Assembly: GCF_964213995.1 (NCBI RefSeq)
Contig: NW_027590185.1
Location: 186,001 to 250,000, forward strand
Source: Mustelus asterias
Taxonomy: Eukaryota
DNA: 64,000 nt
Reading direction: 5' to 3'
The notes beneath the pieces are model-generated. The model saw nothing but the letters and a program-made list of their open reading frames with translations, was not told where the DNA came from and did not search any database. Made by a program: the position numbers and the translations under genes. How positions within the stretch are numbered: the stretch's first letter is position 1; each line of letters starts with the position of its first letter. Of this stretch, positions 77 to 64,000 are shown piece after piece.

Positions 77-751
77 TCACTCATGAACATGATGGTGTTT
101 CAGCAGGTGAGGTGACTGAGTGAATCCCTTCCCACACACGGAGCAGGTGAATGGCCTGTCCCCAGTGTGAATTCGCTGGTGCTTTACCAGGTTGGATGAT
201 TGACTGAATCTCTTACCACAATCAGAGCAGGTGAATGGTCTCTCCCCCGTGTGAACTCGCTGGTGCCTCCGCAGGCTGGATGAACAAGTGAATCCCTCCC
301 CACACTGAGAGCAGCTGAATGGCGTCTCCCCAGTGTGAACTCGCTGGTGTTTCTGCAGGTTGGATAACTGAGTGAATCCCTTCCCACAATGAGAGCAGCT
401 GAATGGCCTCTCCCCAGTGTGAACTCGCTGGTGTGTCCGCAGGTTGGATAACTGAGTGAATCCCTTCCCACAATGAGAGCAGCTGAATGGCCTCTCCCCA
501 GTGTGAACTCGCTGGTGTGTCTGCAGGTGGGATGAACAAGTGAATCCCTTCCCACAATGAGAGCAGGTGAACGGCCTCTCCCCAGTGTGAACTCGCTGGT
601 GTGTCCGCAGGCTGGATAAATGACTGAATCCCTCCCCACACTGAGAGCAAGTGAATGGTGTCTCCCCAGTGTGGCTGCGCCGATGAGCTTCCAGCTGAGA
701 TGGGGATATGTATCTCTTCCCACAGTCCCCACATTTCCATGGTTTCTCCAT
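77..751 (-). CDS. C2H2 zinc-finger protein, 8 fingers (ZNF-A)
   Basis: ORF from ATG (MEKPWKC) with 8 CxxC..HxxxH repeats and TGERPF linkers; splice acceptor ttttacag|g with exon starting at 1101 (-). Confidence 0.88.
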
Positions 752-1339
752 GGTGCAGGTGTCCTTGCCTCTCTCTTGGGTGGACAATCAGTTGAAACTT
801 CGTCCACACACAGAACACGAGTACAGTCTCTCCCTGCTGTGAATGGTGTGATATTTATTCAGGCTGTGTAACTGGTTAAAGCTCTTTAGTCTGTGCACTG
901 GAAGACTCTCACTCGAGTGTGGCAGTGTGTTGGTGCTTTTCCAGTCACACTGATGGTCGAACTCTTTTCAAATCGACAAACTGGACAATCATTTCTCCTT
1001 CTAGATTCAATGGCTGATGATATTCAGCTCCCAAGGAATATGACTCTGTCAGATCTGACGTGACATTTGAGATTTCGGCCTGTGATTCCTCTTTCAATAT
1101 CCTGTAAAATGGGTTTACAAAAGTCATCAATGTTAGTCCAGGATAGAAATTCAGAACAGACAATTCTAGTTTCTATGGAACATTCTTTCCTATTTCAGTC
1201 CCAAAAAGCTGTGAATCCACACACTCTCCCTCGATTCTCACTCTGCTGTATCTAATATTCACCCTCCCAATTCTCCTGAAGGTGCTGATTGAGGCTGATT
1301 GACAGATCCATGCTCACTGCTTCATGTCCTGGACACAGA

Positions 1340-4458: not shown

Positions 4459-5710
4459 ACAGTGAACATTATCCCCCAGACCCGAATATAAAACAGTGAA
4501 CATTATCCCCCAGACCCGAATATAAAACAGTGAACATTATCCCCCAGACCCGAATATAAAACAGTGAACATTATCCCCCCCAGACCCGAATATAAAACAG
4601 TGAACATTATCCCCCCCAGACCCGAATATAAAACAGTGAACATTATCCCCCAGACCCGAATATAAAACAGTGAACATTATCCCCCAGACCCGAATATAAA
4701 ACAGTGAACATTATCCCCCCCAGACCCGAATATAAAACAGTGAACATTATCCCCCCCAGACCCGAATATAAAACAGTGAACATTATCCCCCCAGACCCGA
4801 ATATAAAACAGTGAACATTATCCCCCAGACCCGAATATAAAACAGTGAACATTATCCCCCCCCAGACCCAAATATAAAACAGTGAACATTATCCCCCAGA
4901 CCCGAATATAAAACAGTGAACATTATCCCCCAGACCCGAATATAAAACAGTGAACATTATCCCCCAGACCCGAATATAAAACAGTGAACATTATCCCCCA
5001 GACCCGAATATAAAACAGTGAACATTATCCCCCAGACCCGAATATAAAACAGTGAACGTTATCCCCCAGACCCGAATATAAAACAGTGAACATTATCCCC
5101 CAGACCCGAATATAAAACAGTGAACATTATCCCCCCCAGACCCGAATATAAAACAGTGAACATTATCCCCCAGACCCGAATATAAAACAGTGAACATTAT
5201 CCCCCAGACCCGAATATAAAACAGTGAACATTATCCCCCCCCAGACCCAAATATAAAACAGTGAACATTATCCCCCAGACCCGAATATAAAACAGTGAAC
5301 ATTATCCCCCAGACCCGAATATAAAACAGTGAACATTATCCCCCAGACCCGAATATAAAACAGTGAACATTATCCCCCAGACCCGAATATAAAACAGTGA
5401 ACATTATCCCCCCCAGACCCGAATATAAAACAGTGAACATTATCCCCCAGACCCGAATATAAAACAGTGAACATTATCCCCCAGACCCGAATATAAAACA
5501 GTGAACATTATCCCCCCCAGACCCGAATATAAAACAGTGAACATTATCCCCCAGACCCAAATATAAAACAGTGAACATTATCCCCCCCAGACCCGAATAT
5601 AAAACAGTGAACATTATCCCCCCCAGACCCGAATATAAAACAGTGAACATTATCCCCCCCAGACCCGAATATAAAACTGTCAACATTATCCCCCCCACAC
5701 TTGAATACAA
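4459..5710. repeat. Minisatellite, 34-37 bp unit, about 36 copies
   Basis: acagtgaacattat(c)5-8agacccgaatataaa tandemly repeated. Confidence 0.97.
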
Positions 5711-6334
5711 AATTGTCCTGATGGATTCAGACAGCATTATCACAATATTCCAAATGTATTTTTTCCAGGAATAGATTCAGCGGCTGCATCACAGGAGGCC
5801 AGAGATACTCTCCTCAAACTCGGCTCATGTGAGGAATCCCTCCAATGAGGCTCAGGAATGTTGCAACCAGAGTCACGTGACCACCAAGTGTGTAACTGAA
5901 CAAACTACCGCAACGTTGAAGATGTGTTTCAGTGTGAAATGATTTGCTTCACCTGTTGGTTCAGAGTTGAGAGAAAATTTCCCTTTCTGGGGTAACTTCT
6001 TAAAGCGACAGAGCACGACAAGCTCACAACTCCTTGATTAAAATAAGATGCAAGATCCTTCATTGTAACTTAACCCTTTTTAAGCCAACTTCCAAGGCCT
6101 GATTTTATCAGCAACATCTAATCTTTGTTAATTTAAAATCCCAAACACGTTACCAGCTGCAATCTCCTTGTTCTTTATCTGGGGTTGAGGTGACAACAAT
6201 ATAAAATTCTCAGTTATTCCAAATTCCTCCAGGGTATGCTTAAAATTTCCACATTTAACTGGCTCCAATAAATCCACAATTATAAACTAAAATAGACACG
6301 AGTTTCTGGGTGATTTAAAAACAATTTAAAAACA

Positions 6335-11385: not shown

Positions 11386-11994
11386 GCCTCTCTCTTGAGT
11401 GGACAATTCGTTGAAACTTCGTCCACACACAGAACAAGATTACAGTCTCTACCCGCTGTGAATGGTGTGATATTTATTCAGACTGTGTAACTGGTTAAAG
11501 CTCTTTAGTCAGTGCATTGGAACACTCTCACTCGAGTGTGTCAGAGTGTCGATGCTTTTTCAGTCACACTGACATTTCAAATCTTTTCAAATCGACAGAC
11601 TGGACAATCATTTCTCCTTCTGGATTGAAAGTCCGATGATATTCAGCTCCCAAGGAATATGACTCTGTCACGTCTCGACGTGACGTTTGAGATTTCAGCC
11701 TGTGATTCCTCTTTCAATATCCTGGAAAATGAGTTTACAAAAGTCATCAGTGTCAGTACAGGATAGGAATTCAGAACAGACAATTTCTACGGAACATTCT
11801 TTCCTCTCTCATTCCCCAAAAGCTGTCAAACTCCATCCCACACACTCTCTCCCCATTCTCAGCAGGTCTGGCAGCATCTGTATGGAGAGAAAAGAACTGA
11901 TGTTTCAGAGCTTTGACAAAGGGTCATCTAGACAAGAAACATCATTTTCTCTCTTGGTTTCAGATTCCAGCATCCGCAGTAATTTGCTTTTATA

Positions 11995-13200
11995 AGGCTG
12001 CAGATACCTCCTCCCAAGTAACATGCGTGTGCCCAAGACATCATCACTTGTTTCCCTTATTTCTTTAGCACCCATGGTGCTCTCCGCAGAAAACACAGAG
12101 GAGAAGTATTCATTAAAAATCTCACCCATCTCCTGTGGCTCCACACACAGATGGCCATACTGATTTTTAAGGGGATCTATTCTCTCTCTGTCCACCCTTT
12201 TACTCTTAATATAGCTATAGAACCTCTTGGAATTTTCTTTAATCTTACCTGCCAGATCCATATCATACCCTCTTTCTGTCCTCCTGATTTCCCTCCTCAG
12301 TATTTTCTTACACTTTTTACAGTCAGAGTAATTCACTTGTCCCCGATTGCCTAAACCCAATCTATGCTTCCTTCTTTTACCTGACCAGAGCCTCAATGTC
12401 CCTTGTCTGCCAGAGATCCCTAAATTTACCATTCTTTCCCTTCATCTTAACAGGAATATACTGCCCCTGGACTCTTGATATCACACTTTCAAAACCTCCC
12501 AATTGCCAGTCATTCCTTTCCCTTCAAACAAATTCACCTAATCGACATCTGCTCGATCCTGCCTAATGCCCACAAAAGTGGCCCTGCTCCAGTTTAGGGC
12601 CTTGACTTGTGGACCTGTCCTATCTTTTTCCAGAACTATTTTGAAACTATTGGTGCTCCCAATAGTGCTCCCTGACTGACACTTCAGTCACTTGCTCCAC
12701 CTCATTTCTTAACTGTCTAATAGAAAGTGATTCCAGGAATTGATAATGAAAAATAAGGAGCTGGGAGATGAATTGAACAAGTATTTTGCCTCGGTGTTCA
12801 CAATAGAGGATAGAGTTAAAACTCAGAAACAGCTGGAAATCAGAAAACAGAAGTGTGGGATGAACTCTGAAAAAGCACAATTCCCAGGGAAGTGGTCCTC
12901 AGCAAACTGTTGGAGCTGTGGGCTGATGAGTCCTCAGGTCCTGCTGGGCTTCATTCTCGGGTCTTAACAGAGTGAGAGAGTTGATGTGTTGTTCAATTTT
13001 CTAAAATTCCCCATCGGGAATTGGATAAAGGGAAACCAGTGGATGCGCTGTACTTAGATTTCCAGAAGACATTTGATGAGGTGCCACATGAAAGGTTATT
13101 GCAGCAAATAAAAATTCATGCTGCGGGGAGAACATATTGGCGTGGATAGAAGATTGGCTCATAGCAAACAGTGGGCAGAAATGGATCATTTTCTGGGGTT
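11995..13200. mobile_element. Degraded CR1 ORF2 fragments (- strand to ~12720, then + strand)
   Basis: REIRRTERGY..LAGKIKENSKRFYSYIKSKR (-); ELNKYFASVFT and a YLDFQK.FD.VPH-like segment (+). Confidence 0.75.
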
Positions 13201-13930: not shown

Positions 13931-14056
13931 TCGGTCTGTATATTCCACACATTTTTACTCCAGTAATGCAGACATTTATCTGTCTGGCAGCCTGCATGGA
14001 AATTTTCAGCTCTCTGCATCCAGAGCAAGAAGCAGTGAGCATGGATCTGTCAATCA

Positions 14057-14779: not shown

Positions 14780-15300
14780 TGGCGGCAGTCAGCCCGGGTC
14801 TAACACTACAAGCTGTCGCTCCATTTGCTACAAAGGGGGTGACCGGGAAGTTCATTTCCGGGTTTGGGTTTGAACAACATGTTTACAAAGTCTCTCCACC
14901 CACCCGCCACATTTATCATTCCCCGCACGCCGCCCACTACCTCGTATTGATCTCCCTTCCAAACTAAAACCGGCCGTCTGTCGCCATTACCCGCACTGAT
15001 GTGGAGATGCCGGCGTTGGACTGGGGTAAACACAGCAACAAGTCAAACAACACCAGGTTAAAGTCCAACAGGTTTTTCTGGTTCACCCGCACTGCGCATG
15101 CTTCAGGTCCCGCCTCTCATTCACTCCGATTGGTTGAAGGACCAGCCACTCCCGCTCGGTCCTCCAGTCCCGCCCCCTCTTCCTATTGGTCCGGAGCTGC
15201 CGTCAATCAATCCCGGGCATTGTGATGTGGAGCATGCGCACTGTCATTGCTGTCCTTGGCGCTTGTTTGTCCCGGAGAAGCGGAGTCAGCGTTAGGCGGT
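14780..15300 (+). promoter_or_regulatory. CpG-rich promoter of ZNF-C
   Basis: TGCGCATGC and GCATGCGCA (NRF1-like), GATTGG (CCAAT), CCCGCCCC GC boxes; inverted copy at 63.0-63.24 kb. Confidence 0.65.
14999..15084 (-). mobile_element. 86-bp Penelope-like terminal insertion with 10-bp TSD
   Basis: TSD ACCCGCACTG at 14989-14998 and 15085-15094; insertion absent from the paralogous site at ~63215. Confidence 0.85.
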
Positions 15301-16241
15301 GGCTGGGAGGATTTGGAAACACTTTGTGGATCCGCAAACCCTTCAGAATCATTGTCAGCTCCCTGGTTTGCAGCTGCGGGGCTTCTCCCTCCCTCCCTCC
15401 CTCCCTCCCTCCCGGGAACAGGCCCAGGTTAACGGCCCCATCCTGGCTCAGCCACTGGAGGATGGTTGACATCAGAGGATGGGGGAGGGGGACAATAAAT
15501 AAGAGGTTACACTTTGGCCTCAAATCAATGAGGACTCTGATCTCTGGGAAGGAAGGAAACCCTGGGAGGTGGGCGGGGAGGATTCACAAACACCCGCTGG
15601 AGGCCCCAACACCACCAATAAGACCCATTCGTTTTATTGTCAGTCTGCAGACAGGAGCTGGAGAACTGAACCCAGACAGAGGAGAGGGAGGGAGAAAACT
15701 GGGAGTGGAGGAAAGAAATGGTGAGATGGGTTTGGATTTCAGCCCAGGGAGGAGGGAGAGTGTGTGGGACGGGGATTTACTGATTTGGGGGAACAAGAAA
15801 GGAAAAAATGTTCCAGAGAAACTAGAATTGTCTGTTCAGAGTTTGTATCGTGTTCTGACAGTGATGACTTTTCTAAACTGTTTTTACAGGATATTGGAAG
15901 TGAAAGATTGGCAGACAGAAAACTCAAACCGGACATCACATCTGACAAAGTCATTCAGTTCCTTCGGAGCTGAATATCATCGGTCTTTGAATGTGGAAGG
16001 AGAAATATTTGTCTGTTCTGCCTGTGGGCAAAGAAATTAAACATCAGTATGACCGGAAAAGTATCGAGACAAACACACACCCGAGTGAGAGTGTTCCAGT
16101 GAACTGAATGTGGAAAGAGCTTTAACCAGTTACACAGCCTGAAAAAACATCACAGTTCACAGCAGGGTGAAACTACGTGTATGTTGTGTGTGTGGATGTG
16201 GCTTGAACTGATCATCCAACCTGGAGAAACACAAGGGCACC

Positions 16242-21161: not shown

Positions 21162-21416
21162 GTTGTAAAATACAGCAGAATTGGAAGAACAGACAGGTTA
21201 TTGTCTGATACTGACAGTGGCAGAGTAACACACACCGGAATCTAAATACATTATATCAATAGACCATGACTCACTCACACTATCAAATGAAACCTAAACT
21301 TTGGTTCTGGTGCACTAGATACTGACTGTATTATCATTACATTGGATCTAATGCTGTGTTCGCTAACATACTGCAACGTGACTTATTATTTGAACAAACA
21401 TTGTATTTGTTGCACT

Positions 21417-22503
21417 CAGAGTAAGTCAGTGCTTTGCTGTGTTGTCTCTGTGCTCCATCCCCACTCTGATTGTACTGGAGCCTGTGTGTCAGAGTAAGTC
21501 AGTGCTTTGCTGTGTTGTCTCTGTGCTCCATCCCCACTCTGATTGTATTAGAGCCTGTGTGTGTCATTGTTACACTCAGAGTAAGTCAGTGCTTTGCTGT
21601 GTTGTCTCTGTGCTCCATCCCCACTCTGATTGTATTGGAGCCTGTGTGTGTGTCATTGTTACACTCAGAGTAAGTCAGTGCTTTGCTGTGTTGTCTCTGT
21701 GCTCCATCCCCACTCTGATTGTATTAGAGCCTGTGTGTGTCAGAGTAAGTCAGTGCTTTGCTGTGTTGTCTCTGTGCTCCATCCCCACTCTGATTGTATT
21801 GGAGCCTGTGTGTGTCACTGTTACACTCAGAGTAAGTCAGTGCTTTGCTGTGTTGTCTCTGTGCTCCATCCCCACTCTGATTGTATTGGAGCCTGTGTGT
21901 GTGTCATTGTTACACTCAGAGTAAGTCAGTGCTTTGCTGTGTTGTCTCTGTGCTCCATCCCCACTCTGATTGTACTGGAGCCTGTGTGTGTCAGAGTAAG
22001 TCAGTGCTTTGCTGTGTTGTCTCTGTGCTCCATCCCCACTCTGATTGTATTGGAGTCTGTGTGTGTCATTGTTACACTCAGAGTAAGTCAGTGCTTTGCT
22101 GTGTTGTCTCTGTGCTCCATCCCCACTCTGATTGTATTGGAGCCTGTGTGTGTCATTGTTACACTCAGAGTAAGTCAGTGCTTTGCTGTGTTGTCTCTGT
22201 GCTCCATCCCCATTCTGATTGTACTGGAGCCTGTGTGTGTCAGAGTAAGTCAGTGCTTTGCTGTGTTGTCTCTGTGCTCCATCCCCACTCTGATTGTATT
22301 GGAGCCTGTGTGTGTCATTGTTACACTCAGAGTAAGTCAGTGCTTTGCTGTGTTGTCTCTGTGCTCCATCCCCACTCTGATTGTATTGGAGCCTGTGTGT
22401 GTCATTGTTACACTCAGAGTAAGTCAGTGCTTTGCTGTGTTGTCTCTGTGCTCCATCCCCACTCTGATTGTATTGGAGCCTGTGTGTGTCACTGTTACAC
22501 TGA
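21417..22503. repeat. Minisatellite, 13 units of 73-89 bp
   Basis: cagagtaagtcagtgctttgctgtgttgtctctgtgctccatccccactctgattgta.tggagcctgtgtgtgt(cattgttacact); the Cys/Val-rich ORFs here are repeat artefacts. Confidence 0.97.
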
Positions 22504-22525
22504 GACTCTGTCACTGTGATTATTG

Positions 22526-23231: not shown

Positions 23232-23660
23232 GACAAACAGCAAGTCACCGTCACAATGACCAGCTGATTGACGGCAGCGCGGGCCAATGGGAGGAGGGGG
23301 CAGTGCTGGAGGAACGTTCTGGAGCGGTCGGTCCTCCAACCAATAGGAGCGAACGAGGGGCGGGGCCAACTTTGACTCGAGCATGCGCAGTGTGAGTAAT
23401 GGCGATGGAAAACGTTTATTTTGGGCTCGGAAATCTGTTCGAGGTGATTGGCGGTACGGAGAGAGCAATGGATCGTCCAGGTGGGTGGAAACGCTGTGTA
23501 AGCATGTTGTGAGAGTCGCAAACCGCGGAAGAGAGCTTCCCGGACCCAGTTTGTACCGAGCAGGGCTGCAGTTCCTCATGTTCGTCCCGGGTTAACTTCG
23601 CCATCTTTAATGGGGGCAATATGCAGCAGTGCGCATGTGCGGCTGCCATGTTTGTAGAGG
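23232..23660 (+). promoter_or_regulatory. CpG-rich promoter and exon 1, probably of ZNF-D
   Basis: CCAAT at 23284 and 23340, GGGGCGGGG, GCATGCGCA (NRF1-like), CGCCATCTT (YY1-like) at ~23599. Confidence 0.65.
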
Positions 23661-24380: not shown

Positions 24381-25090
24381 ACCCACGTTGGCAGCAAGTT
24401 CAATATCATCATCAGTCACAACCCCCCTGTATCTTCACTAACTGATACAATCCATTTAAAACATTCTTAGTTGAGAATGTAGCCATATTTCTGTTAGACT
24501 GGCAGTCTGCATGGAGATTTTCAGCTCTCTGTGTCCAGGACAGGAAGCAGTGAGCATGGATCTGTCAATCAGCCTCAATCAGCACCTTCAGGAGAATTGG
24601 GGGGGTGAATATTAGATACAGCAGAGTGAGAATGGAGGGAGAGTGTGTGGGATGGAGATTCACAGCTTTTGGGGAATTAGAGAGGAAAGAATGTTCCATA
24701 GAAACTAGAATTCTCTGTTCTGAATTTCTATCCTGTACTGACACTGATGAATTTTGTAAATTGTTTTTACAGGATATTAGAAGAGGAATCACACTGATAA
24801 ATCTTAACTATCACATCTCGATCTGACAGAGTCACTCGATTCCTTGGATACTAAATATCCTCAGCCTCTGAATGGGAAGGAGAAATGTTTGACCGGTCTG
24901 TCCACTGCAAGATTTTAAGCAGCAGTGTGACTGGAAAAACACCAGGACACAAACACACACCCGACTGAGAGTGTTCCAGTGCACTAACAGTGGAAAGAGC
25001 TTTAACCAGTTACATAGCCTGAAAAAAACATTGCAGCATTCACAGTGGGGAGAGACTGTACCCGTGTTCTCTGTGTGGACAAGGCTTCAA

Positions 25091-25434
25091 ATCATAGAAA
25101 TCATAGAAACCCTACAGTGCAGAAGGAGGCCATTCGGCCCATCGAGTCTGCACCGACCACAATCCCACCCAGGCCCTACCCCCACATATTTTACCCGCTA
25201 ATCCCTCTAACCTACACATCCCAGGACTCTAAGGGGCAATTTTTTAACCTGGCCAATCAACCTAACCCGCACATCTTTGGACTGTGGGAGGAAACCGGAG
25301 CACCTGGAGGAAACCCACGCAGACACGAGGAGAATGTGCAAACTCCACACAGACAGTGACCCGAGCCGGGAATCGAACCTGGGACCCTGGAGCTGTGAAG
25401 CAGCAGTGCTAACCACTGTGCTACCGTGCCGCCC
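25091..25434 (-). mobile_element. HE1-type V-SINE inserted in the leader of the ZNF-D coding exon
   Basis: Full SINE splitting the degenerate finger ...ggcttcaa|tgattg, 35 nt upstream of the ATG. Confidence 0.9.
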
Positions 25435-25469
25435 TGATTGACCTGCAATGATACTAGGAGACCGACAAT

Positions 25470-26144
25470 ATGGAAAAACCATGGAAATGTGAGGACTGTG
25501 GGAAGAGATACAAAGCGCCCTCTCTACTGGAAGCTCATCGGCGCAGCCACACTGGGGAGAGGCCGTTCACCTGCTGGGTGTGTGGGAAGGGATTCACTGA
25601 TTCATCCACTCTGCAGAGACACAAGCAAGTTCACACTGGTGAGAGTGCATTCACCTGCTGTCAGTGTGGGAAGGGATTTACTCAGATATCAAGCCTGCAG
25701 ACACACCAGCGAGTTCACACTGGGGAGAGGCCATTCACTTGGTGTCAGTGTGGGAAGGGATTCACTCAGTTAACTAATCTGCGGAGACACCAGCGAGTAC
25801 ACTCTGGAGAGAGGCCATTCAGCTGCTCTGCATGTGGCAAAAGATTCACTCAGTTATCTCATCTACGGGCACACCAGCGAGTTCACACTGGGGAGAGGCC
25901 ATTCACCTGCTCTCAGTGTGGAAAGGGATTCACTCAGTTAACTAATCTGCGGAGACACCAGCGAGTACACTCTGGAGAGAGGCCATTCAACTGCCCCGTG
26001 TGTGGGAAGGGATTCACTCGGTTATCCACCCTGCAATCACACCAGCGAGTTCACACCGGGGAGAGACCGTTCACCTGCTCTCAGTGTGGGAAGGGATTCT
26101 GTGATTCATCCACCCTGCGGACGCACCAACAAGTTCACAAGTGA
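25470..26144 (+). CDS. C2H2 zinc-finger protein, 8 fingers, 4th degenerate (ZNF-D)
   Basis: 224-aa ORF MEKPWKC...HQQVHK; acceptor tttttacag|g with exon starting at 24773; 3' flank homologous to that of ZNF-B. Confidence 0.87.
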
Positions 26145-33626: not shown

Positions 33627-34358
33627 TCAGTTCCTGAGAGCTTCTGAAGCCGGCCTCTCGGGCAGAGCATTAAAGGGGCTCTCCTTGGAGTGAGTGGCTT
33701 TGTGTTTCAGCAGGCTGGATGAAGCAGTGAATCCCTTCCCACACACACAGCAGGGGAATGGTCTCTCCCCAGTGTGAACTCGCTGGTGTACCCGCAGGCT
33801 GGATGACCATTTAAACCTCTTTGTGCAGTGAGAGCAGCTGAATGGTCTCTCCTCAGTGTGAATGCGCTGGTGGGACACCAGATCCTGAGAGCTTCTGAAT
33901 CCGCTCCCACAGTCAGAGCATTTAAACGGTCTCTCATTGCTGTGAGTGAGATTGTGTCTGCACAGGTGGAATGACTGAGTGAATCCCTTCCCACACACCG
34001 AGCAGGTGAATGGATTCTCCCCAGTGTGAACTCGCTGGTGTACCCGCAGGGTGGATGACCATTTAAACCTCTTTGAGCAGTGAGAGCAGCTGAACGGTCT
34101 CTCCTCAGTGTGAGTGCGCTGGTGGGACACCAGATCCTGAGCGCTTCTGAATCCGCTCCCACAGTCAGTGCATTTAAACGGTCTCTCATTGCTGTGAGTG
34201 AGATTGTGTCTGCGCAGGTGGGATGAATGAGTGAATCCCTTCCCACACACAGAGCAGGTGAACGGCCTCTCCCCAGTGTGACTGCGTTTATGAATTTCCA
34301 GTACAGATGGGTATCTGAATCCCTTTCCACAGTCCCCACATTTCCACGGTTTCTCCAT
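33627..34358 (-). CDS. C2H2 zinc-finger protein, 8 fingers, truncated by frameshift (ZNF-E)
   Basis: ATG MEKPWKC at 34358; frameshift at ~33672; acceptor cttacag|g with exon starting at 34707 (-). Confidence 0.78.
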
Positions 34359-35659
34359 GGTGCGGGTGTCCTTGTGACTCTCCAGGTTAAACAATCAGTT
34401 AAATCTCACACAGAACACGGGTACAGTCTCTCCCGCTGTGAATGCTGCGATGTATTTTCAGGCAGTGTAACTGGTTAAAGCTCTTTCCACACTCAGTGCA
34501 CTGGAACACATTCACTCGGGTGTGTGTATCTCAGTGCATTCCTAGTCACAGTGATGTTTACAATCTTTTGAAGCCAAGAGGCCAAACAAACATTTCTCCT
34601 GCTAGATTCAAAGGCCAATGATATTCAGTTCCCAAGAAGTCGAGTCACTCTGTCAGATCTCGATGTGATGTTGGAGATTTCTGTCTGATTTCTCCTTGTC
34701 TAATATCCTGTAAGTCAATTTAGAAAAAACATCGTAATTCAGAATACGATCGAAATTCAAATCGACATTTCTAGTTTCTATGGAGCATTCATTAAAGACA
34801 CAGTCATGGAGCATTAAACCTGCCCAGCAGGGCCTCCCGTATCAGCACACAGGCAGCTGCTTTGTGAGACTGCCAGCAGTACAGACAAGTCAGAGATAAG
34901 GGTGTCCTCAGAAGTGGGATTCATTGTGAAAGCTCAGGGACGGTTGATAAGATGCAGCAATTCTGTGATTCTAATGAACATTCTTTCCTCTCTCATTCCC
35001 CAAAAGCCGTAAATCTCCATCCCACACACTCTCCCTCCATTCTCACTCTTCTGTATCTAATATTCACCCTCCCAATTCTCCTGAAGGTGCTGATTGAGGC
35101 TGATTGACAGATCCATGCTCACTGCTTCCTGTCCAGCACAGAAATCATAACAAATAGGAGCTGCAGTCAGCATTCGGCCCATCGAGTCTGCACAACCATT
35201 CATTCAGATTATTGGTTGATCAACCTCTGCATTATTTTCCCCACACTGTCCCCCATATCCATCGATATCTTCAATATCCAGAAACCTATCAATCCCTCTC
35301 TTGAAAATTCTTGATGACTGAGGCTCTGTAGTCCTCTGGGGTAGAGAATCCAAAACATCACCACATCCTTGAGTGAAGAAATCCTTCCTCATCTGAGCTT
35401 TCTCTCCATTTTCCAGCCTGTTCCCAATAATTATTGACTCCCTTGTCATTCAAAAACTGTCTAACTCATCCTTGAATATATTCAATCCCTCCACTGGTCC
35501 CTATGGAAGAGAAATCTAGACACTAACAATTCTCTGAGGGAAGAGATTGTTGGAAATATATAATATAACTGCAGTCCAAAATTACACAGCCAGATATAAT
35601 AAGTGTATTTTATTACAGAGCTATAAATAATATATCGAATCTGTACCATATAACAACAG

Positions 35660-41740: not shown

Positions 41741-42206
41741 GGTGATGGTTTTCCCAGGCACCGGCTGCTCTTATCTTTCTGTGGGTGGAGTTATGGGTTT
41801 GGGAGATTCTTTCAAAATTCAAATTCAGTTGCAGATCTATGAAGTTCATCTCTTCTACCCTCTCCTCCCATAGAAGCCAGAGTCTTGTGTAAGCCCCGAC
41901 TGGGTGGCAGGTTCCCTTCCCTAAAGGACATTAGTGAACCAGTTGGGTTTTTATGAGAAACCAGCAGTTTTCAGGGTCACTTTTTCCGAGCGCTGGCCCC
42001 ACAAATTACAAGATTAATTTTGCTCAATTTCACAACCTGCCTTTGTGTTTTTCTGGGTTCTCTTTTACATTTCCTTGATTCTGTCTTAAATTCATTTTAC
42101 AGAATGTTTGAAATGTTCACGATCAGGAAAGTCAAACCAAACATCACATCAAAATCTGACAGAGTCACTCGATTCATCAGGACTTGAATATCATCGGCCT
42201 TTGAAC

Positions 42207-43076
42207 ATGGAAGCAAAAAGCACTGTTCACACCAGGGAGAAACCGTGGAAATGTGTGGACTGTGGGAAGGGATTCAGATCCCCATCTGAGCTGGAAATTC
42301 ATCGACGCAGACACACCGGGGAGAGGCCGTTCATTTGTTCCGTATGTGGGAAGAGATTCGCTCAGTTCATCTGCCTTCAGCTGCATGAGCGACTCCACAC
42401 CGGGGAGAGGCCGTTCACCTGCTCGGAGTGTGGAAACGGATTCACTCGCTCATCCCACCTGCTGAAACACCAGCAAGTTCACACTGACAAGAGAGAGTTT
42501 CAATGCTCCAATTGTGAGAAGAGCTTTAAAAGCCCACACGGACTGAGGGAGCACCAGCGCATTCACACCGAGTACACACTGTTCAGCTGCTCTAAGTGTG
42601 GGAAGAGTTTCAGGACAGCAACCCACCTTCAGACACACCAACGAGTTCACACTGACAAGAGACCTTTTAAATGTCCAGAGTGTGGGAAGTGCTTTAAAAG
42701 TTCTGGTGAACTGATGTCCCATCAGCGAGTTCACACTGAGGAGAGACCGTTCAAGTGCTCTCACTGTGGGACTGGGTTCAGGCGATCATCTCATCTCACT
42801 GTACATCAGCGAGTTCACACTGGGGAGAAGCCATTCATCTGCTCCAAGTGTGGGAGGGGATTCGCTCAGTCCTCCAACCTGCTGACGCACCAACAAATTC
42901 ACACTGAGGTGAGGCCGTTCACCTGCTCCGAGTGTGGAAAGGGATTTGCACGATCATCCCACCTGCTGACACACCAGCGCATTCACACTGGGGAGAGGCC
43001 GTTCACCTGCTCCGAGTGCGGGAAGAGATTTACCGAATCATCCAATCTGGTGAAACACCAGCGAGTTCACAGATGA
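42207..43076 (+). CDS. C2H2 zinc-finger protein, 10 fingers (ZNF-F)
   Basis: aacATGg start (MEAKSTVHTREKPWKC); frame open back to 42108; acceptor ttttacag| with exon starting at 42103. Confidence 0.9.
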   Translation: MEAKSTVHTREKPWKCVDCGKGFRSPSELEIHRRRHTGERPFICSVCGKRFAQFICLQLHERLHTGERPFTCSECGNGFTRSSHLLKHQQVHTDKREFQCSNCEKSFKSPHGLREHQRIHTEYTLFSCSKCGKSFRTATHLQTHQRVHTDKRPFKCPECGKCFKSSGELMSHQRVHTEERPFKCSHCGTGFRRSSHLTVHQRVHTGEKPFICSKCGRGFAQSSNLLTHQQIHTEVRPFTCSECGKGFARSSHLLTHQRIHTGERPFTCSECGKRFTESSNLVKHQRVHR

Positions 43077-45177
43077 CGGCTCTGCTCTGATTCTGCTGTT
43101 GTTAATCAGATTCAGGACTGAACCCTATTCATCATGACATTGGGGGAGTGTTGATGATGTTGCTGCAAAGTACAGTAACTGGGCTGGAGTCGACAGAATT
43201 TGCATTCATATAGCACCTTTCACAACCTCAGGACATCTCTGTGCGCAGTCAGCCTCCACAAGCAGCAATGTGATGAGGGGCAGTGACCTGTTTGCAGTGA
43301 GATTGGGTGAGGGGTAATATTGGTTTCAGCGGGGTAAACCACATCAACAATGTGATAATGAGCAGTGTTCTGTTTTTAGGGAGATTGGGTGAGGGGTAAT
43401 ATTGGTTTCAGCAGGGTGAGCTCCCTCCTCTCCTTCCAAATAGAAGCCGTGTGATCTTTCACCTCGGAGAGCAGACGGGACCTTCGGGTTAACATCCTCA
43501 TAGCAGTGAAGTGAAGAACCTTCATTCTGAGACTATTGAAGAATCAGCACTTAATCAATAGATGTACTTGTCAGACTGGTAATATAACCTGTAACACAAA
43601 GTCTGTAATGTTTTATTATAATAAATAATATGATTTTAAGTACACTGGTCATAAATCATGAGAACTGTCAAATTATGTTTTCCAGCCAATCTAGAAAGAT
43701 AAGGTCGAGCTCACAAAACATTTATGGCTTTGACAAGTTACATTAAGTTGGGAATAAATGGGACCTTACCCAAGCTGCCTCATTTATTCAGTAGACCTTT
43801 GTACTCAGACATCAGGAGATGCTAGTAGGTGTCAGGGGCCAATCAGACAATTAAGTTAATCAATTATCATTCAACACTGAGGCTAATTTGAGTTAAGTAA
43901 ATGTGAGTTGAAGGGGTTAAAATAAAGGTTTTGAGTCGCCAATCTGTTAACATGTCCTTGTCTGATGATCATTTCATGTCTTTGGCCTGATCGACCGAGG
44001 AAAGTTGTGAGAAGTCTGTTTCATTGTTAAAGATGAGCTTTCTCCTCCTCCTCTCCATCACTGTTAATTCAAACTTTGCTTTTTATCTTTCTAACTTGTT
44101 ACCTTTTTACCTTCTTAATGGTTAATAAATCTTCTGAATTTACCAATTAGAATGTTCATTCTGGCCAGATAGTTAAATATTGTAGATTTAATTTAAAATT
44201 GGGGATTTATTGCAAACAACTTCTACCTGATAAATCAACTTCAAAGTATAAATGCTGCCTGGATTTGGTGTCTTGGTGTAAATGGTCCCTGGATTTGGTT
44301 TCTCAGTCCATGTGGGCCCCGCACTGCTTTCAACCCAACTGTCTGTCTCAGATCTTTCATTGATTTCAATTGAATGGAAACTGGGAGTTGGGACCTGTCA
44401 ACATTTGAAATATATTTACAAATGTTTGGAGGGTTTCTTACAGTTGGGACCTTTCTCTGTTCTGTCCACTCAAGATGTTGGGTAACAGACTTTCTCCTGT
44501 GAATATCCAGCTGGAGTTTTGGGCCCTGATGTGTTTCCTTGTTCATCTTGTTGACTCTAAATATTGAATCTTATGGTTTCATACATCAGATAATCAAACT
44601 CCCAACACCAGATTGTCTTTAACTGACTTTATTACAGCACTGCAATAATAGACAGAATATAGTTACTTGTCCTGCAGAACAGAGGTAATACCCTAGATTC
44701 AGAGCTCTCTATCCTGAGCAAGCTATTCAGTTGTGTCAAATTGCTACAGAAGAGTCAATGATAAAACCAGACTGACCACCCTGCATTGACCTAGGTTCCA
44801 GAAATGATAAAAGCACACTGTTCCCAAGTTAATCCTGCAAAGAATTCCTGGCTAACAGCTGGGGGCTTGTGCCAAAGTTGGCAGAGATTTTCTGAAAGAC
44901 GTGGGTTCACCTCAACTTAAATGTAAGACTTAAAGTCAATTACAATTGTTGGGTTTAGTTGGGAGAGCTGATCTAAAAGGGACTTTCATTTACAACTAGC
45001 TACAGGACCATACTGGGTGCAAATATTGTTACAAGCTTTACAGAATTTACTAAGTTAATCACATAAGTACAAAATGCAAAACTTAACAAAGGCAGTGGAA
45101 GCAGTCAGTTCACTTTGTAACGCTGGCTCACAACTTCCAGCCAACTGCGGTATTGTTTCTTGTTCTGTTGACTATCT

Positions 45178-62694: not shown

Positions 62695-64000
62695 TCTTAT
62701 TGGGGGTGTTGGGGTCTCCAGCGGGTGTTTGTGAATCCTCCCCGCCCACCTCCCAGGGTTTCCTTCCTTCCCAGAGATCAGAGTCCTCATTGATTTGAGG
62801 CCAAAGTCTAACCTCTTATTTATTGTCCCCCTCCCCCATCCTCTGATGTGAACCATCCTCCAGTGGCTGAGCCAGGATGGGGCCGTTAACCTGGGCCTGT
62901 TCCTGGGAGGGAGGGGGGGAGAAGCCCCGCAGCTGCAAACCAGGGAGCTGACAATGATTCTGAAGGGTTTGCGGATCCACAAAGTGTTTCCAAATCCTCC
63001 CAGCCACCGCCTAACGCTGACTCCGCTTCTCCGGGACAAACAAGCGCCAAGGACAGCAATGACACTGCGCATGCTCCACATCACAATGCCCAGGGACTGA
63101 TTGACGGCGGCTCCGGACTAATAGGAAGAGGGGGCGGGGCTGGAGGACCGAGCGGGAACGGCTGGTCCTCCAACCAATCGGAGTGAATGAGGGGCGGGAC
63201 CTGAGGCATGCGCAGTGCGGGTAATGGCGACGGACGGTTTAGAAAATTGAACATCAACTATCTCCCTCTGTTAAGACCCGAGAATGAAGCCCAGCAGGAC
63301 CCGGGAATGAAGCCCAGCAGGACCCGGGAATGAAGCCCAGCAGGACCCGGGAATGAAGCCCAGCAGGACCCGAGAATGAAGCCCAGCAGGACCCGAGAAT
63401 GAAGCCCAGCAGGACCCGAGAATGAAGCCCAGCAGGACCCGAGAATGAAGGCCAGCAGGACCCGAGGACTCATCAGCCCACAGCTCCAACAGTTTGCTGA
63501 GGACCACTTCCCTGGGAATTGTGCTTTTTCAGAGTTCATCCCACACTCCTGTTTTCTGATTTCCAGCTGTTTCTGAGTTTTAACTGTATCCTCTATTGTG
63601 AACACCGAGGCAAAATACTTGTTCAATTCATCTCCCAGCTCCTTATTTTTCATCATCAATTCCTGGACTCACTTTCTATTAGACAGTTAAGAAATGAGGT
63701 CGAGCAAGTGACTGAAGTGTCAGTCAGGGAGCACTATTGGGAGCACCAATAGTTTCAAAATAGTTCTGGAAACAGATAGGACAGGTCCACAGGTCAAGGC
63801 CCTAAACTGGAGCAGGGCCACTTTTGTGGGCATGAGGCAGGATCGAGCAGATGTCGATTCGGTGAGTTTGTTTGAAAGGAAAGGAATGACTGGCAAATGG
63901 GAGGTTTTAAAAGTGTGATATCAAGAATCCAGGGGCAGTATATTCCTGTTAAGATGAAGGGAAAGAATGGCAAATTTAGGGATCTCTGGCAGACAAGGGA
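62695..64000 (-). repeat. Inverted segmental duplication of 12399-13004 joined to ~14965-15622
   Basis: Near-identical ORF-track peptides (15186+ vs 62674-; 12740+ vs 63258-); includes a copy of the ZNF-C promoter at 63000-63240. Confidence 0.92.
63276..63466. repeat. 23-bp minisatellite, 8 copies
   Basis: acccg(a/g)gaatgaagcccagcagg x8; a single unit at the paralogous site ~12938-12963. Confidence 0.95.

Follow-up and report, generated by a model that had tools for sequence, protein, structure and literature searches.

Why does a 60-nt open reading frame (ORF) remain almost letter-perfect in front of three zinc finger (ZNF) genes while the DNA around it drifts? The question is raised by the window, that is, the whole 64-kb stretch of Mustelus asterias DNA that was analyzed (Table 1). 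Three near-invariant copies lying sense to ZNF genes had been predicted and were confirmed: all 60 nt agree between the ORFs of copies 1 and 3, that of copy 2 differs from both by one base (nt 47, E16G), and each is sense to a C2H2 ZNF array whose ORF starts MEKPWKC. The neighboring leaders and upstream relics had been called more diverged than the ORF, and pairwise identities bear this out, with 233/289, 234/295 and 236/292 matching positions among the three leaders and 319/388 between the putative CR1 relics upstream of copies 1 and 3. The main acceptor had been placed about 150-400 nt downstream; the ORF stops of copies 1, 2 and 3 were measured 150, 157 and 349 nt upstream of it. An orphan copy truncated by an inserted repeat, presumably a Penelope-like element, is present as described. 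What did not hold up was the ORF as the unit of conservation. Conservation starts ~15 nt before the ATG and continues at the same level 40 nt past the stop, and the conserved unit is a block of ~115 nt (ATG-15 to +100) with the ORF inside it, identical at 108-113 of 115 positions among the three window copies.

Table 1. Block copies and associated features in the 64-kb window
Feature	Position	Strand	Remark
Conserved block, copy 1 (ATG-15 to +100)	1212..1326	-	
60-nt ORF inside block copy 1	1252..1311	-	Peptide without sign of selection
3' shoulder, copy 1, with putative branch point and acceptor	1102..1211	-	Finger exon starts at 1101
ZNF ORF 1, MEKPWKC start, 8 fingers	77..751	-	Leader in front holds stops and broken fingers
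Conserved block, copy 2 (ORF 24556-24615)	24541..24655	+	
3' shoulder, copy 2, with acceptor	24656..24772	+	Finger exon starts at 24773
CpG-rich promoter-like region and inferred exon 1, gene 2	23265..23480	+	Donor GT at 23481
ZNF ORF 2, 7 fingers	25470..26144	+	
Conserved block, copy 3 (ORF 35116-35057)	35017..35131	-	Acceptor; finger exon starts at 34707
ZNF ORF 3, 8 fingers in frame	33627..34358	-	
Orphan 5' part of block	14011..14056	+	ATG at 14040; cut at +17, 17 nt into the ORF, by inserted repeat
ZNF paralog with block only from +72 on	11720..11861	-	Inserted repeat replaces upstream part
ZNF paralog, other subfamily	15751..15891	+	+79 onward common, upstream sequence different

The donor of gene 2 and the start of its finger exon suggest that the block lies in intron 1. 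The promoter-like region of this gene carries a decamer-like site, a CCAAT and a GC box. Assembled contigs of runs from other organisms, which speak to the presence of the block and not to splicing rates, touch both ends of this putative intron: one contig each of runs X2 and X3 begins aligning at 24772 and 24770, at the acceptor, and one joint in a contig of run X6 leaves at 23480 with GT and lands at a site that differs from the ZNF acceptor. The shoulder of copy 1 holds a four-site haplotype that flips between sister paralogs, and that of copy 3 is broken by an insertion. Several further features of the window were observed. The finger-exon leaders (752-1100 on the minus strand, 24773-25469 on the plus strand and 34359-34707 on the minus strand) are dead coding sequence with broken fingers and common stops, and a subfamily at 42090-43154 keeps an open frame through a linker homologous to this dead leader. 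The promoter-like regions at 23265-23288 (+) and 15185-15209 (-) have a decamer-like site followed after 6-7 nt by CCAAT, the one at 63098 (+) has CTAAT instead of CCAAT, and GC-box and GCATGCGC motifs also occur in ZNF promoter-like regions. Self-comparison of the window revealed two long tandem repeat arrays (4459-5712 and 21407-22516) and two recent inverted duplicates of promoter-side DNA ~50 kb apart (12399-12963 versus 63436-64000, 97%; 15085-15623 versus 62695-63222, 95%).

The block is by no means confined to the window. A 39-mer from the ORF has 1,175 exact matches in the 3.68-Gb genome and its reversed control has 0, and therefore the 60-nt copies are not due to chance; allowing at most one mismatch gives 1,536 matches, the 39 nt after the ORF stop match exactly 1,280 times, and the ZNF start motif matches 2,769 times. 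These genome counts were made by exact patterns; a DNA search scored 27 candidates and missed two of the window copies. Copies were compared in a sample comprising every copy in 1,664,000 bases (the window plus 1.6 Mb of contiguous cluster DNA near known matches), which holds 171 finger arrays and 106 block copies. As +1..+39 is exact in 49 of the 79 sample copies that cover it, the family would come to near 1,900 copies, and we place the number of block-bearing C2H2-ZNF paralogs at roughly 1,500-1,900, a count that very recent duplicates or redundant contigs may inflate, some loci being identical over their aligned length.

The prediction that the element is family-wide and tied to ZNF genes rather than dispersed was also sustained, with 78 of the 106 copies sense to and within 1.5 kb of a finger array (random places, 7.9%) and the block always oriented sense to the gene. 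A CpG island lies at most 3 kb upstream of 77/106 copies (random, 28%), and these islands upstream, together with the finger arrays downstream, place the block between promoter-like DNA and the coding exon. The promoter-like core of the family reaches 86-95% column identity in 39 sample copies, no higher than the block. Opposite-strand copies face each other within 4 kb in 37 of 106 cases; many are arranged head-to-head, 0.9-4.5 kb apart, around a CpG-rich stretch (the L077/L079 region, G000:C71, and others), which suggests shared two-way promoters. A second ZNF subfamily (15 sample copies; 15670-15830 on the plus strand of the window) carries other sequence at the place of the block, with a milder peak of 93-94% versus 77-91% in its leader.

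Formal alignments bear out that the block is more conserved than its flanks. Across 78 copies, identity per column is 92-97% between about -10 and +140. When each event is counted a single time per cluster (39 clusters, from the 84 usable copies of 106), the rate per site is 0.058 in the ORF, 0.047 in +61..+100, 0.095 in +101..+140, 0.122 from there to the acceptor and 0.150 in the non-CpG leader, the block changing about three times more slowly than the exon leader. Median pairwise distances among 62 of the 78 copies are 0.038 for the ORF, 0.22 for the leader and 0.18 for codon positions 1+2 of the first fingers. The edge at +100 is sharp, with events per 10 nt rising about fourfold, from 6-9 to 19-34, in 71 low-divergence copies. 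There is no CpG in the 115 nt, and 66% of the bases are purines. As most of the diverged copies (13/84) are as far from the consensus in the block as in the leader, the block is not a mutation cold spot. The block is flanked on its two sides, near -44 and +97 (24512-24527 and 24652-24667, plus strand), by the copies of a 16-nt near-direct repeat, the second of which straddles the sharp 3' edge; this repeat could be an old duplication or an insertion scar.

The antisense strand does carry the decamer TGATTGACAG, which PMC6023610 describes as the DECA motif, bound by Pbx/Prep and often found beside an NF-Y CCAAT. A special role for it found no support: freeing the ten decamer positions in the genome pattern adds 106 copies to 1,197, versus 112 for ten control positions. 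Events per site over +1..+100 are Poisson-flat (P=0.83) with no motif footprint. Flat sites and an unprotected decamer are unlike a factor-binding element.

What, then, keeps the block alike? Judging from these sequence comparisons, we put an even chance on the block being a family-wide nucleotide-level control element that is under selection and smoothed by gene conversion. Such a block would be read as DNA within the putative first intron. Selection, and not conversion alone, would hold the core, and conversion between copies would even out core positions and scramble the 3' shoulder. An open, protein-bound site would attract breaks, and this could account at once for the evenness of conservation along the core and for the scrambling of the shoulder.

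In eighteen sister pairs picked on their upstream flank, 19 of 1767 block positions differ (1.1%) versus 174 of 5575 leader positions (3.1%; P=5e-7), a block/flank ratio of 0.34 that falls to ~0.16 without two pairs from diverged clades. When pairs are picked on the leader, a procedure that biases the result, the ratio is 0.88 in the 9 youngest pairs and goes down to 0.19 in old ones, the pattern that conversion predicts. As the two ways of picking pairs give such different ratios, no weight is placed on a change of the ratio with time. Blocks beside intact ORFs lie a median of 1% from the consensus (n=58) and the others 3% (n=44; P=0.002, with copies that are not independent of one another). 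The block is nonetheless dispensable for a gene, because 94 of the 171 finger arrays have none within 1.5 kb, 62 of these 94 having ORFs of at least five fingers, and because 5 of 17 diverged copies precede intact ORFs, three of them with 14-17 fingers. Conversely, 21 copies at most 2% from the consensus have no intact ORF behind them. In a subfamily of 10 copies that are flanked on either side by insertions, +1..+100 has still undergone about 2 changes. In one 23-copy clade the block changes near the flank rate (0.16 vs 0.19 steps per site). What defines the subfamily with this near-flank rate (L278-L297) is the insertion at -17 of an AT-rich repeat, about 170-220 nt long, and the pattern of this insertion also matches on the large contigs C1, C3, C7, C9 and C15.

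Gene conversion had been suggested alongside nucleotide-level constraint, and its involvement is borne out by shoulder haplotypes that form a patchwork at odds with the flank tree. In the same 18 pairs the shoulder (+101..+217) differs by 5.4% between sisters, above the leader (P=1e-5), and between distant clusters +101..+180 shows only half of the leader's divergence. Four linked shoulder sites flip together between sisters, including the one supported pair of a subfamily (bootstrap 89), and a perfect-consensus group is nested within the variant-bearing 23-copy clade (bootstrap 77-85, moderate) in an insertion-clade tree from which 6 of 29 members, lacking block or downstream homology, were dropped. 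In addition, the alleles -7C and +21G recur across subfamilies in 38 and 37 exact copies, compared with an average of about 3 per allele, with -7C found in 8 leader clusters (29 of 30 loci examined); these could be tolerated sites that were hit repeatedly. Seven of the 30 +21G copies examined lie in one region (L228-L234; G000:C75, 17.49-17.79 Mb), where the nearest sampled leaders of these genes differ by 9-20% and three genes also carry -7C. The retention index is lower near the block and uninformative at depth. Head-to-head partners share 4 block variants, with 4.4 expected (P=0.49, no excess), and no GC-biased signature was found in the shoulder, and it is for these two reasons that the hotspot step is without direct support.

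Many of these observations can also be accommodated by a functionless conversion island, in which a CpG-free stretch that stayed alike longest is overwritten to one consensus by more than 1,000 donors, and copies that have drifted beyond a threshold escape and decay. We regard this as the main rival, less likely than not. The flat per-site spectrum without footprint, the absence of CpG, the shoulder patchwork with its nested reversion, the recurrence of -7C and +21G and the intact long ORFs behind diverged or missing blocks all favor it, as does a skewed distance distribution whose tail lies at leader-level divergence; partial homogenization of genes is moreover described for zebrafish NLR genes (10.1101/022061). 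It is opposed by the sharp fourfold edge at +100, by the association with intact ORFs and by the 10-copy subfamily that stays close to the consensus between its insertions. The recurrent alleles may be tolerated sites rather than marks of transfer, and neighbors share no excess of variants. Among the 40 of 477 difference rows listed for other organisms, the only one inside the block is a private base of the window copy compared, and the lack of a fixed difference in these rows also speaks against an island without function. Selection on a nucleotide-level element, with conversion acting on top of it, remains the reading that we prefer.

An RNA-level module was considered next to this control element. 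We find it unlikely that the block supplies an upstream 3' splice site or an alternative 5'UTR exon, with a uORF that lowers ZNF translation once it is included, and we are similarly doubtful that dense splicing or RNA-binding signals, and not a peptide, fix its sequence. In its favor are candidate acceptors that precede the ATG by 17 and 12 nt, candidate donors at +50 and +71, the good Kozak context, the constant sense orientation and the purine content. The block is also covered by assembled contigs in 4/4 runs (4 studies, at least three other organisms, guessed to be RNA), which implies that it is older than Mustelus asterias, and one X1 contig starts aligning at the first candidate acceptor. 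The longest pieces from other organisms are only 87-88% alike (14/107 and 18/150 differences), a point against the selected control element, and the unique stretch just upstream of the block is covered by contigs of none of the four runs. The splice dinucleotides, the ATG and the stop are nevertheless no more conserved than their surroundings in the block: the first acceptor is retained in 56/83 copies, the donors in 95/104 and 97/101, the ATG in 88/98 and the stop in 86/101. Conservation continues past both donors, upstream ATGs are already present in the ordinary leader, depth does not drop at the GTGAAT donor, X1 as well as X2 has contigs that continue across it, and none of the 15 of 46 joints listed, all from these other organisms with RNA guessed, uses GTGAAT or the block donors. 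A structured intronic RNA such as a snoRNA or miRNA was rejected: an Rfam search of the window gave 0 hits, and six folds of the block on both strands gave z of 0.0-0.9, none better than shuffles. A 25-mer of the block had 0 matches in a JGI metagenome scan.

We consider it very improbable that more than a thousand loci produce a conserved micropeptide of 19 aa, or that the block is an N-terminal effector exon of the KRAB/FiNZ type. The 19-codon frame has an ATG in good Kozak context and an in-frame stop, 47 of 106 copies encode the identical peptide, and the synonymous nature of the commonest variant (+21) yields an omega of 0.65 (P=0.04) over all sites and 0.59 (P=0.13) in low-divergence copies. 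Thirteen of 35 silent events fall on this single site, however, and omega is 1.04 without it. Rates at codon positions 1, 2 and 3 are equal (0.051, 0.058 and 0.060), none of 14 distinct indel events in the ORF keeps the frame, and of the remaining copies 22 have a changed peptide, the ATG, stop or frame is lost in 29, a net in-frame indel is present in 1, and 7 are partial. Conservation does not end at the start and stop codons: the 39 nt that follow the stop are at least as invariant as the 39-mer of the ORF (1,280 versus 1,175 matches). Splicing the ORF to the main exon produces a stop at the joint, and the leader consensus holds further stops; a KRAB/FiNZ-like effector exon was rejected on the ground that the frame stops at the joint and does not reach the finger array. 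Read-through of the stop into a 50-codon frame was likewise rejected, with an omega of 1.04 after the stop, and a protein search with the 40-aa in-frame extension against longer proteins gave one match among three candidates, an unnamed 86-aa ORF from a frameshifted copy. The frame tests go most of the way to refuting the micropeptide reading, and the 19 codons are probably incidental; constraint would act, as anticipated, at the level of nucleotides rather than codons.

A dispersed transposable element was rejected (78/106 copies sense near arrays versus 8% by chance, and no clean empty site), and it is highly unlikely that the block came from a short, young mobile element homing to one intron position common to many ZNF genes already in place, since the star-like variation on old flanks and the 16-nt near-direct repeat that would suit it are countered by the lack of clean empty sites (paralogs without the block keep +79 onward or were cut by other insertions), by conservation that fades into both flanks, by the existence of old diverged copies and by the first 100 listed matches of the ORF 39-mer, which lie in only three contigs, all with ZNF clusters.

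If the control element is real, a wider but quite unlikely extension would make it one 115-nt switch, bound from end to end and common to almost two thousand shark ZNF genes that lack KRAB, which would also be a break hotspot kept self-identical by conversion and a shared joint at which the copies swap coding exons and promoters. This switch would possibly be bound by the family's own finger arrays, as a family-wide feedback. For the co-regulation of very large KRAB-less ZNF families, a block far more alike across paralogs than the coding fingers points to a common input. In practical terms it offers a single probe, guide or reporter addressing more than 1,000 genes at once. Should the block prove functionless, nature would have provided an exceptionally clean example of a short conversion island that sustains itself, and one that cautions against taking invariant small ORFs in paralogs for micropeptides.

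A search of mostly open-access literature found no description of the block, and the accessible text of the shark genome paper PMC8455134 has nothing on it. As far as its sequence tells, the block would be paralog-conserved non-coding DNA and not a micropeptide. It resembles known systems in part, in its working above all the mouse V1R promoter peaks and the zebrafish NLR genes. With the DECA sites of PMC6023610 it shares the exact TGATTGACAG, but it differs from them in having no exact CCAAT and no extra protection of the decamer; the pair of a decamer-like site and CCAAT is found in the family's promoter-like regions and not in the block. Like the FiNZ and KRAB exons (PMC10547256 and PMC2604467), it is short, highly conserved and placed in front of the one exon that holds the finger array, in a ZNF expansion particular to its lineage. 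Those exons, however, are coding and joined in frame, whereas the frame of the block stops and shows no codon signal. The zebrafish NLR-B30.2 genes (10.1101/022061) are similarly homogenized in part within a cluster of hundreds of genes, where coding domains within groups are affected and not, as here, a short non-coding block. The mouse V1R promoter homology peaks (PMC1955453) are likewise peaks of non-coding identity between the paralogs of a large gene family and are unbroken rather than motif-like. Those peaks span 500-1000 bp, are subfamily-specific and contain start sites; the block, in contrast, measures ~115 nt, extends across subfamilies and shows ~99% identity in most copies. Its place is downstream of the promoter-like region, and its family is some ten times the size. 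For the V1R peaks, too, the authors of PMC1955453 bring up gene conversion in addition to selection.
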